From Planctomycetota bacterium (GTDB taxonomy: Bacteria; Planctomycetota; Brocadiia; SM23-32; JAKLEA01): a stretch of 64,000 bases of DNA. Where the stretch lies: positions 336,743 to 400,742 of the forward strand of contig JAKLEA010000001.1 of the NCBI GenBank assembly GCA_022711755.1, written 5' to 3'. The notes below the pieces were generated by a model. The model was not told the DNA's origin. It saw only the letters and a list, made by a program, of their open reading frames with translations, and ran no database searches. Position 1 is the first letter of the stretch; every line of letters starts with the position of its first letter. Positions 33,015 to 36,000 of the stretch are shown in pieces. The translations under genes and the position numbers were made by a program.

Positions 33015-36000
33015 ATGCGCCGTCTCATTTCAATTCTGTTTATTTTGACATCCTCCACCCTCTTCGCCCAGGAAGCTCCGCCTCCCGCCGCGAAATTGGA
33101 AGGTGGACTTCTCAACGTCGTCTGGCAGAAGGCGTTCTCTCCCAACATGTATGGTTCCGCCAACCACGCCGACCTTGACGGCGACGGCAAGTCTGAAATC
33201 ATCTTCATCACGACGCTGGACAAGAAGCTCCACGCGATGCGGCTGGACGGCTCGTTCCTCTTCGAGACGCCCATCCGCCAGAACGCCGTCAGCAACCCGT
33301 CTGTGATTGACGTTGACGGGGACGGCAAGGTCGAGATCGTCTTCGGCACCGACGCCGGGGACAAGAGCAACCTGTTCTGCGTCAATAACGATGGCAACAT
33401 CCGCTGGAAGACTCCCCTGCTCTCCCCCGTCCAGTGGACGACGGCCGTTCCGATTACGTTCAACCTCGCCGGGGAAAAGGCCATCTGCGTCGGATCGGCC
33501 AGCGGGTATCTCTACTGCTTCGACAAGGAAGGCCATCCGCTCTGGGTTTTCGACACCTCGTCAGAATATTCGCGCTCGATAACTGAACTGAACCCCTTCG
33601 GACTGACACCGGCGAAGCCGAAGGAAGGCGAGCCGGACGTTTACGCAATTCAGGGGCATCTGGCCGCAGGCGACGTGAACTCCGACGGATGGGACGAGAT
33701 TCTTTTCCCGACCGATCGTGGCGTTCTCTTCTGCCTGGACAGGCATGGGCGTATTGTCTGGAAATGCCGACTCGGGGCAGGAACGTCAACTGGGCCGGTG
33801 ATCGCCGATCTCAACAAGGACGGCAAGCCGGAGGTTGTCTGCGGCGGCGGGACGGAGGACGCCGGGGCCGTCATGGCGCTGGCGGGCGCGACCGGGGAAC
33901 TGCTCTGGAAATGCCCGATTGCAGGGGAGATAGACTCACCCCTTGCGGTTGCCGACACAGACAATGACGGCAGTTACGAAATCTTCGCGCTGAACACATC
34001 CGCTCATATTTACTGCATTGACGCGAAGGGAGAAAAGCGTTGGGAGAACTTCGCCGCCGGCGGATCATGGTCCGCGCCGCTGCTGGCCGACCTCGACAAC
34101 AACGGGAGAATGGAAATCATCGCCGGGCTGAAATCAGGCAAGCTCGCCGTCTTTACTCAAGGCAACGGGAAACTGCTTCAGGAGGAATGGCTGACAAGCC
34201 CAAGCTACGCATCCCCCACCCTCGGCGATTTCGACTCGGACGGGCGGCTGGACGTTATCGTCCCGCTCAGGGGCGGAGTTATGACGCTTCTGACCAGCGC
34301 CAAGCCTTCGGGCAAGGTCGGCTGGGCAAGCTGGCGCAACGACCCCACGCAGACCGCCTGTCTCTGGAAATCCGACGCCAAACCGGTCGAGACCGCTCCG
34401 CGCGGTAGTCTTGACGGTGTCTTTATTCTCAGCGAGTATCAGGCCGACCCGGACAAGCCTTACCGAATCGAGATTCTGGCACAGGACGGCGGAAACGAAA
34501 CGGAATGCAGGCTTGAGTTGTTGCGCGACGAGAAGATTCTCTGGACCGGAACCTGTACCCTGGAAGGCATCGGGGCCGCAAGAAGAGGGCGGACCGAGAT
34601 TACCTTTGGCGATATCGAAGACGGCCCGGCAACTTTCAAGGTGATGGTTGGCGGAAAGGAATTCCAGCGTAAGATGGCAGTTGCGTCGGAAGCAAAGGTC
34701 CGCGACAAAATAGCGAAGTTGAACGCGGCATTACCAGCCGCCAGAGAGCATGCCGAGAAACGCGCCGATTCTTTCGCTTCCGCGATTTCCGCCGAAATGC
34801 TCAGCGATTTCGCCGAGGAGTGCGTATCCGAAGGCGATCTGGCGCTGGCGTCACGGGTGGCCGATTACGCTCGATATCGTATCCAGGAATGCGAAATGGG
34901 CGTATCTGATTCGGTGGGGATTAGGATTGACGAACCGGTTAGAAATAAACTTGTCATTAGTCAGAACAGTAATCTCAGCATATGGTATAAAAATAGAGGA
35001 TTTTGTACGACTTGCCCCGTGCCTGGTGATTCTCTCGATTTCGAGCTATCGGGCCTTCTCAAGGGCAAGCCCCTTGATCGCGACTATGTCTTCGAGGTAC
35101 GGCTGATTGATTCTTTCGGCACTGAAATAGCCAGAACCGATATTGTTCCGGATACTCCGACGTCGAGATGGCGCCCGGAAGCGGGTGTTTACCTGCCCAT
35201 AGCTACCATCAATATCCCTCGACAACTGGCAGACAGCATCACAAAACCCATTGTTAACCCACCAATTTACGAAGGAACCCATCATCTCGTTCTAAACGTC
35301 AAAGAGCCGGGAACCGGTAATGAACTCCGACTCGGCAAAATCTTCGATAGCTCCGCTCCCTTCCGAGGTTGCAAACTGCTCACGACTTTTGACATTTATG
35401 ACAGTCCCATGATCATACGTAAAATCTATACAGACCTTGGGAAAACAGTTAGAATCATTATAAATCGCAGACGAAACACCGCGGATAAAGCATCTGTCCG
35501 TTTGTCCCTGATATCTCCTGGCGGCGGAGTTCTCTGGGATGCGTCTTCCCCGGTACCGGACGGGTTGACTGCCGTATGCGTATTCAGACACCCAGCATTA
35601 GATCCAAGTCTAGGAACAGAATTCCGGGCGGAACTCTATATCGGCCAAACACTCGAGTCGCGTGTATCCGTGCCAGCGCTAGGAGCGAGAGTAGACAATC
35701 ATGTATCAGTCAGTAAGGAAAATCAACTTGTGGCGGGCGACGACGGCTTATGGACTCCGATACTGATATATGGACTCGCGGAGCAGGGAGCCGATGTCTC
35801 AGTGGAAGTATTTGCCAATGGTCTGCCCTACGCCTCTTTTAAGTCCTTAAAACCGAATGCCGAAGGAAGACTTCATGAGACCCTCAAGGTCCGCCCCCAT
35901 TTCGGCACCTTCGACGTCCACGTCACCGCCACAAAAGGCGACAAGAAGGTCATCAGCGGACACAAGCTCATCGCCACCGTCGTCGAAGTCCGGGACAACC

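Follow-up and report, generated by a model that had tools for sequence, protein, structure and literature searches.

A patch of AT-richer DNA in the middle of a GC-rich gene raises the question of whether the patch was inserted there or is an old part of the gene whose composition differs from that of its flanks. The window considered here is the whole 64,000-nucleotide stretch of contig JAKLEA010000001.1 (positions 336,743 to 400,742 of the contig, from assembly GCA_022711755.1), which derives from a planctomycete of the class Brocadiia; positions below are counted from its first nucleotide. It contains a long gene for a predicted secreted fusion of an FG-GAP beta-propeller with an enzyme resembling those of glycoside hydrolase family 2 (GH2). 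An earlier reading of the letters alone (the original prediction) singled out positions 34880-35760 of this gene as an AT-richer segment and proposed that it was either a recently acquired inserted domain or linker or a region under different selection. We designate the corresponding block, as delimited below, MID. MID is very probably the ancestral, noncatalytic beta-sandwich region of the GH2-like module rather than an insertion or a linker, and its anomaly is confined to synonymous positions. The features of the gene are collected in Table 1.

The open reading frame (ORF) that holds the segment runs over 32943-37061 on the plus strand (1,372 codons) and, as had been proposed, is open throughout. 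The TTG at 32943 is only the mechanical start of the ORF; the ATG at 33015 is likely the real start, giving a product of 1,348 amino acids. This product is 100% identical to P0001, named in NCBI 'MAG TPA: FG-GAP-like repeat-containing protein [Candidatus Brocadiia bacterium]', and five contigs of 0.2-1 Mb from several archives, with three different recorded lengths (416,131, 453,213, and 470,882 bp), encode the identical protein. Pfam places the propeller at ORF residues ~60-450 and the Glyco_hydro_2_C barrel at ORF residues 1014-1215, so that the segment lies between them, just where the original prediction had put it. The sequence run that it quoted, a 71-mer, is present exactly at 34939-35009.

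Relatives of the enzyme decide whether MID was inserted. The full-length protein as a query returned propeller matches only (at most 30% identity), and it was the C-terminal part as a query that revealed the family. Free-standing family members, 600-745 amino acids long, consist of a signal peptide, the MID-equivalent segment, and the barrel. In one locus, L002, the protein is split into a 631-amino-acid propeller gene followed by a gene for a 739-amino-acid enzyme (P0116) with its own signal peptide; the two genes together are collinear with the ORF studied here, share one frame, and have only TAG ATG between them. Two further loci, L004 (encoding P0125) and L047, carry fused genes with the same architecture as the gene in the window. 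Scanning of genomes located 42 loci, distributed over Hydrogenedentota, Omnitrophota, KSB1, Calditrichia, Armatimonadia, Planctomycetes, and other groups, and most of these loci carry the MID segment. About 36 family members drawn from many phyla, the lineages of L002, L004, and L047 among them, align collinearly over the MID region. Because free-standing, split, and fused relatives all carry a collinear MID segment, MID is not to be regarded as an insertion. The proposal of a true domain insertion or a newly acquired linker could appeal to the atypical composition and to the fact that a Pfam search of ORF residues 480-1010 recognized no family, even at E values up to 1. However, essentially every family member, with or without a propeller, has the segment in collinear position and with its motifs conserved, and the predicted fold of the segment is part of a GH2-type domain series, which makes an insertion extremely unlikely. 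The N-terminal sandwiches cannot be recognized by sequence as the sugar-binding and immunoglobulin-like domains of GH2.

An AlphaFold2 (AF2) model of the enzyme module (predicted local distance difference test score [pLDDT] 75; predicted template modeling score [pTM] 0.75) comprises three beta-sandwiches, a TIM barrel, and a further C-terminal sandwich. In Foldseek, the best matches of the model all belong to the galactosidases and glucuronidases of GH2; the top 15 align over 644-806 columns, with E values down to 3e-21 and alignments of about 650-680 columns at that value. The template modeling scores of the GH2 matches are only 0.32-0.39, with 10-15% identity, which implies that the domain orientations differ. 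The domain series typical of GH2, sandwiches and then a barrel, is present in the modeled structure. MID encodes a former signal peptide or junction stretch, the first two sandwiches, and roughly two thirds of the third. The sandwiches carry the family consensus motifs PDRDY, PTSxWxPG, PPIYEG.HH, and P.FG. Thus, the alignment of orthologues and the structure searches both identify the segment with ancestral sandwiches, and the idea of an added domain was not borne out in any sampled family member, whether free-standing or fused.

Membership in the wider enzyme family is carried by the barrel. It matches PF02836 (Glyco_hydro_2_C) at 35.8 bits, above the curated cut-off of 21 (E 6.6e-9), and a profile of the family searched against the PDB matched GH2 glucuronidases and galactosidases over the barrel only (best E 6.3e-10). 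Two motifs are invariant in 17 family members, WNSANE (N491 and E492, the glutamate codon lying at 36339-36341) and FTEFN (E572, with its codon at 36579-36581). E492 is the presumed acid/base and E572 the presumed nucleophile, their equivalence to the GH2 catalytic residues being suggested by motif resemblance. Enzymes of GH2 (clan GH-A), such as the LacZ beta-galactosidase and the GUS beta-glucuronidases, are similar to this protein in having N-terminal sandwiches followed by a (beta/alpha)8 barrel and, by motif resemblance, in the NE and E motifs. They differ in that the enzyme here has three N-terminal sandwiches rather than two, plus a C-terminal sandwich, in that the sequence similarity is limited to the barrel, and in that the module here is fused or adjacent to an FG-GAP propeller or to another N-terminal domain of ~450 amino acids. 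Overall, this is a distant GH2-like enzyme of the clan GH-A type.

If MID is an old part of the enzyme, the question becomes what is unusual about it. The GC content of 34880-35760 is 0.491, compared with 0.5615 for the window (z = -2.4 among 880-nucleotide windows, 0.6% of which are lower), and the lowest 300-nucleotide window reaches 0.45. The dip is therefore real and exceeds 2 standard deviations, but the original estimate by eye of 40-45% against more than 60% was too strong, the flanks having a GC content of 0.58-0.63. GC contents at first and second codon positions (GC1 and GC2) are nearly constant across the gene, whereas GC content at third positions (GC3) falls from 0.72-0.87 to 0.45-0.51 in the block. 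A three-segment maximum-likelihood fit places breakpoints at 34866 and 35880 and gives GC3 values of 0.72, 0.46, and 0.82 for the three segments, with a log-likelihood ratio (LLR) of 55.6 compared with a maximum of 7.9 in 30 codon shuffles. The 3' edge of the block is sharp, and the 5' edge is gradual. The 3' switch falls inside sandwich 3 at the start of a family-invariant P..G block (PHFGTFDV), the invariant columns being P344 and G347.

Codon usage in the block sets it apart both from its own flanks and from the rest of the window. The four bases are almost evenly represented at third positions in the block (A,.26; C,.28; G,.19; T,.28), with codons such as AAT, GAT, AAA, AGA (9 of 24 arginine codons), and GTA (9 of 27 valine codons), whereas the flanks use almost only C-ending codons (in the 3' part, AAC, 20/20; TTC, 17/17; GAC, 21/24; CGC, 20/26). 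GC3 is 0.80-0.95 in the barrel and ~0.75 in the propeller, with peaks of 0.90-0.93. Compared with 147 segments of the same size from the 38 other ORFs of the window, the block has the lowest GC3 (0.467; the background minimum is 0.497) and the worst codon score (z = -3.6). The two maxima, of GC3 (0.827; background maximum, 0.763) and of codon score (z = +2.5), both belong to the 3' part of this gene. The GC3 of the block is even below the GC content of window DNA outside long ORFs (0.544). AGA makes up 0.38 of the arginine codons in the block, compared with 0.07-0.16 in native low-GC3 genes, and the fractions of AGA, GTA, and ATA match those of family genes from genomes of ~37-40% GC and exceed those of native low-GC3 genes and of family genes with similar GC3. 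With the 64 kb as the host reference, the block thus has the atypical composition, the atypical codon usage, and the discrete boundaries by which recombinant blocks are recognized. These results demonstrate that the gene is a codon-usage mosaic, in which strongly C-ending flanks surround an unbiased middle.

The contrast is not a general property of the middle of long genes, because other long genes of the window lack such a dip; their intragenic GC3 contrasts have LLRs of at most 13.2, compared with 52 for this gene. The value of 13.2 belongs to the neighboring gene for a GH31 glycosidase (39430-41913, minus strand), in which codons 175-655, overlapping the Pfam catalytic core, have a GC3 of 0.74 and the ends have a GC3 of 0.57. 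Five other stretches of the window fall below 52% GC in 880-nucleotide windows, among them 741-2800, 5901-8600, 19061-21900, and 23601-24900. The genes of these four, with a GC3 of 0.55-0.60 and AGA shares of 0.07-0.16, differ in kind from the block.

Because the source is a metagenome-assembled genome, the assembly itself has to be considered. The contig might switch for about 1 kb into the sequence of another population. Assembly bubbles arise at hypervariable regions flanked by conserved sequence. However, the identical protein occurs on five contigs of three sizes from several archives, the reading frame is unbroken, and neither the family motifs nor the collinearity is lost at either junction. 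Two switches would also need long exact matches between populations that differ by 0.3 in GC3. An artefact is therefore very unlikely, and even if one had occurred, the block would be a real allele of a close relative.

It is possible that the flanks, rather than the block, are the unusual part. When GC content at first and second positions (GC12) was regressed on GC3 over 36 family members, with the block defined as 330 codons, GC12 (0.508) and GC3 (0.509) of the block were mutually consistent (z = 0.7) and pointed to a background of ~48% GC. The GC12 of the barrel (0.488) predicts a GC3 of 0.61, but 0.82 was observed (z = -3.8). Set against locus GC, the block lies low (z = -2.8) and the barrel high (z = +2.6). 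What the flanks have in excess is C at third positions (C3, 0.58, the value in the barrel), and the frequency of G at third positions (G3, 0.25) is below the background of 0.31. Flanks acquired from a high-GC donor, for example, from the L002 lineage, which has a similar third-position composition, can be ruled out because the GC12 of the barrel is too low for its GC3. The enrichment is synonymous only, specific to C, and strand specific, and it therefore points to selection on codons in place rather than to a high-GC donor or to GC-biased gene conversion. C bias in pyrimidine-ending codons has been reported as a signature of codon optimization (Lopez et al. 2020, PMC7374057).

GC-biased gene conversion deserves separate mention. 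Its proposed scope in bacteria is expressed in the title of 'GC-Content Evolution in Bacterial Genomes: The Biased Gene Conversion Hypothesis Expands' (PMC4450053). Conserved parts of the gene would recombine more often with relatives and be driven GC-rich, and the fast-evolving middle would escape, in keeping with a pattern that is regional rather than site specific and with a GC3 that follows regional conservation. However, conversion should raise both G and C at third positions, not C alone, no orthologue shares more codons with the gene than expected, and a stretch of low conservation upstream of MID is not depressed. We consider this process a very improbable cause of the pattern.

Third positions in the window also depend on the strand. 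Plus-strand genes have a C3 of ~0.40 and a G3 of ~0.27, and several minus-strand genes have a G3 of ~0.40 and a C3 of ~0.29 (for example, 45121-51787 on the plus strand versus 51804-57647 on the minus strand). Such a dependence points to an asymmetry linked to replication or transcription, which would add to the C3 excess of the glycosidase gene.

Comparison with the orthologues indicates how far the trough is peculiar to this gene. As the original prediction anticipated might be informative, the segment is common to the orthologues but its composition is not. GC3 is flat in L002 (~0.83 in a genome with a GC content of 0.66) and also in L047, and L004 has a mild dip (0.59 in the middle versus 0.72 in the barrel). 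The difference between the GC3 of MID and that of the barrel is -0.31 here, compared with a family median of about -0.03, an average of about -0.085 in genomes of intermediate GC, and next-largest values of -0.18, -0.16, and -0.13. The trough is thus specific to the lineage of the window gene.

The proposal that the region is under different selection is compatible with a synonymous-only anomaly and with GC3 that tracks conservation. In its full form, it holds that the gene has had a single history in which strong selection favors C-ending codons in the propeller and the barrel but not in the sandwich region, which would lie near an AT-leaning mutational equilibrium or even be kept slow to translate. 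This is a serious possibility, although we doubt it on balance. GC3 per 40-column bin correlates with amino acid conservation in all four orthologues compared (rho of 0.61, 0.47, 0.35, and 0.35), and the GC3 profile of the gene correlates with those of L004 (0.59) and L002 (0.46) despite the saturation of synonymous sites. Twelve of the 13 full-length-match family loci at a locus GC of 0.51-0.59 have MID GC3 lower than barrel GC3 by at least 0.04 (differences of -0.04 or below), with a difference of -0.01 in the 13th, and the GH31 neighbor has a catalytic core richer in GC3 than its ends. The excess in the flanks, being synonymous and C specific, is the kind of bias regarded as an optimization signature (PMC7374057). 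In addition, the protein phylogeny is congruent across domains with no extra divergence in this lineage, and block and barrel have the same GC12 background.

The link between conservation and GC3 exists but is insufficient for the trough. In a regression of GC3 on conservation, the residual for MID is -0.24 here (t = -7.7), compared with -0.06, 0.00, and +0.01 in the orthologues. Bins that are equally or less conserved are not depressed, whether upstream of MID (GC3, 0.60-0.75) or in variable parts of the propeller (0.68-0.95). Preferred codons are more frequent at conserved than at variable residues in the propeller (0.83 versus 0.72; p = 0.026) and in the barrel (0.87 versus 0.78; p = 0.021), whereas inside the block conserved codons have a GC3 of 0.43 and variable codons a GC3 of 0.46, with no enrichment. 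Site-specific selection for accuracy as a full account was rejected on this lack of enrichment together with the residual. Selection in place also does not readily accommodate a block whose GC3 is below that of every other coding segment of the window and below the GC content of DNA outside long ORFs, or a 3' edge that is abrupt within a domain. Furthermore, selection for translational efficiency should treat all codons of one mRNA equally.

A variant of selection in place is that the slow, unbiased codons of the three sandwiches were selected to pace the cotranslational folding or export of a large secreted enzyme. We consider this improbable. L004 has a GC3 of 0.44-0.54 at the codons aligned to codons 701-775 here, the center of the trough, although synonymous sites are saturated. 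This dip is a faint echo of what pacing would predict; it could be due to chance or to a shared local constraint.

Our preferred explanation, which we put forward tentatively and at somewhat less than even confidence, is that MID was replaced by a block from the allele of a lower-GC relative. The flanks would owe their high GC3 to selection in place for C-ending codons, as suggested by a GC3 far too high for their amino acid composition. The middle would have been swapped fairly recently by homologous recombination for the equivalent block of the allele of a lower-GC relative, the donor being an unsampled relative within the same propeller-associated clade. One crossover would have fallen at the margin of the strongly conserved stretch ahead of the barrel and the other near the old gene junction, and the imported block would not yet have been reoptimized to host codon preferences. 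Such a replacement would explain the lineage specificity of the trough, the sharp 3' edge at an invariant block, the out-of-range codons, and the self-consistent GC12 and GC3 of the block. Of the original claim of recent acquisition, what survives is only this like-for-like exchange with a homologous allele; acquisition of a new domain does not.

Several results weigh against replacement. No donor was found in any collection searched, the best non-self match to the MID segment being 32% identical. There is no phylogenetic incongruence between block and barrel, although with close relatives unsampled this comparison has little power. Synonymous sites are saturated relative to all sampled orthologues, which leaves the event undated. 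The GC12 values of block and barrel imply approximately the same long-term background (predicted GC3 of 0.57 and 0.61, respectively) and therefore fit a common history in which only synonymous sites differ. On its left side the block has a gradual boundary, a trend of the same sign but less strong recurs in independent lineages and in the GH31 gene, and 'native' codon usage was defined from 64 kb of the genome only.

The protein comparisons behind these statements are consistent across the gene. L002 is the nearest relative, and L004 the next, for MID as well as for the barrel, and the closest relative in the collections searched has ~55% identity in the barrel. Identity matrices are congruent in all four domains, with L004 and L047 as sisters and with the window gene and L002 about equidistant from both. 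The block has not evolved faster at the protein level in this lineage, as its identity to L004 and L047 is 0.24, compared with 0.26 for L002. Codon identity at identical residues equals expectation for every orthologue pair and domain, which rules out a recent exchange with a sampled orthologue. The protein and genome collections searched yielded only a few dozen family members. A metagenome scan with a single protein found no relatives, and the scan with alignment A3 found L047 and L048; a profile search with alignment A1 gave only two proteins and no addition.

Mosaic genes and intragenic heterogeneity in codon usage are known phenomena, and the pattern belongs to them. The mosaic genes for penicillin-binding proteins of Streptococcus pneumoniae and Neisseria were made by intragenic homologous recombination. 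They are similar to the gene described here in having a bounded block of ~1 kb with composition and codons that are odd relative to flanks and host and in keeping the frame and the domain order. They differ in that here the donor or divergent allele is unsampled, the protein phylogeny is congruent, divergence is saturated, and the block has a sharp boundary on one side only. Bias in codon choice that goes with conservation or gene ancestry, the idea of translational accuracy (PMC7374057), is similar in placing C-ending codons in conserved parts, so that GC3 tracks conservation, but the trough here is ~4 times the family norm, is regional rather than site specific, and persists after regression. 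The block also resembles 'alien' DNA and genomic islands in that its GC3 and codon score are outside the range of the 64 kb. Unlike such islands, it is intragenic and like for like, and it lacks mobility genes, repeats, tRNA-type boundaries, and plasmid or phage similarity.

Other elements were sought within the block. Rfam gave no match in it, no similarity to plasmids or phages was found, and its repeats amount to a single weak inverted pair, with no direct ones. Promoter-like matches clustered at 35389-35455 are expected by chance in AT-richer DNA and were rejected. Overlapping ORFs at 35847-37058 (minus strand), 32741-33484 (minus strand), and 34750-35106 (plus strand) have no Pfam match and were not accepted as genes. 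The two antisense ORFs (403 and 247 amino acids, respectively) coincide with the high-GC3 blocks and end where GC3 falls; rather than being genes, they most probably result from the use of C-ending codons.

Table 1. Features mapped in the propeller-glycosidase gene (positions in the window)
Feature	Position	Strand	Basis
Whole gene, predicted secreted FG-GAP propeller and GH2-like glycosidase fusion	33015..37061	+	Identity to P0001, Pfam
Probable signal peptide, MRRLISILFILTSSTLFAQ	33015..33071	+	Inferred from hydrophobic N terminus in translation
FG-GAP / PQQ-like beta-propeller	33120..34292	+	Pfam FG-GAP_3, E 2.8e-28; Beta-prop_CGLA, E 5.2e-27
Poorly conserved stretch joining propeller to enzyme module	34380..34865	+	No Pfam match; pairwise identity 0.12-0.29
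Low-GC3 block (MID)	34866..35879	+	Likelihood breakpoints, codon usage, AF2 model
Three predicted beta-sandwich domains (module residues ~50-180, 182-270, and 280-370)	35013..35975	+	AF2 secondary structure, pLDDT
Abrupt right-hand codon-usage switch, ...CTT CAT GAG / ACC CTC AAG GTC CGC...	35877..35882	+	Breakpoint fit
GH2-like (beta/alpha)8 barrel	35982..36785	+	Pfam Glyco_hydro_2_C, PDB profile matches, AF2
Predicted C-terminal beta-sandwich of enzyme module (strands at module residues 643-728)	36792..37049	+	AF2 model

The poorly conserved stretch that joins the propeller to the enzyme module has a GC3 of ~0.64 and aligns with the C terminus of the propeller gene in L002; it reads as a putative beta-rich part followed by a helical linker. 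Propeller and enzyme are separate in the Armatimonadia-type loci (320-4435 of L002, and also L003 and L005) and fused in the window, L004, and L047. The fusion or fission junction between the L002 arrangement and the window gene lies near the left breakpoint in GC3. The family also has a second clade, which is larger (P0126, P0129, P0132, P0135, and P0137; loci L006-L022) and has another N-terminal domain of ~450 amino acids instead of the propeller, with the motifs HNTK..W.EQDND and WN.T.WIWQKVQ and with a similar poorly conserved stretch before the sandwiches.

Directly upstream on the same strand (29315-32790) are genes for a carbamoyltransferase-methyltransferase fusion (946 amino acids), a weak SxtJ-like protein (139 amino acids; Pfam E 1.3e-4, sub-threshold), and a DUF5989 protein (71 amino acids). 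The convergent downstream gene (37134-39320, minus strand; 728 amino acids), which lies between the two glycosidase genes, has only a sub-threshold match to DUF3352.

The block is a compositional curiosity, not a new element, and it provides a caution, in that a low-GC patch resembling an inserted domain is an ancient part of an enzyme in which only silent sites are odd. If the replacement is true, it would represent domain-scale allelic exchange in an uncultured planctomycete of the Brocadiia class, within a rare and uncharacterized GH2-like family. If selection in place is true, the gene would have an unusually strong, domain-partitioned codon bias within one mRNA. Neither outcome alters the view of how such enzymes work. 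The family, with three sandwiches, a barrel, and a further sandwich fused or adjacent to an FG-GAP propeller, offers a modest lead for the annotation of carbohydrate-active enzymes.

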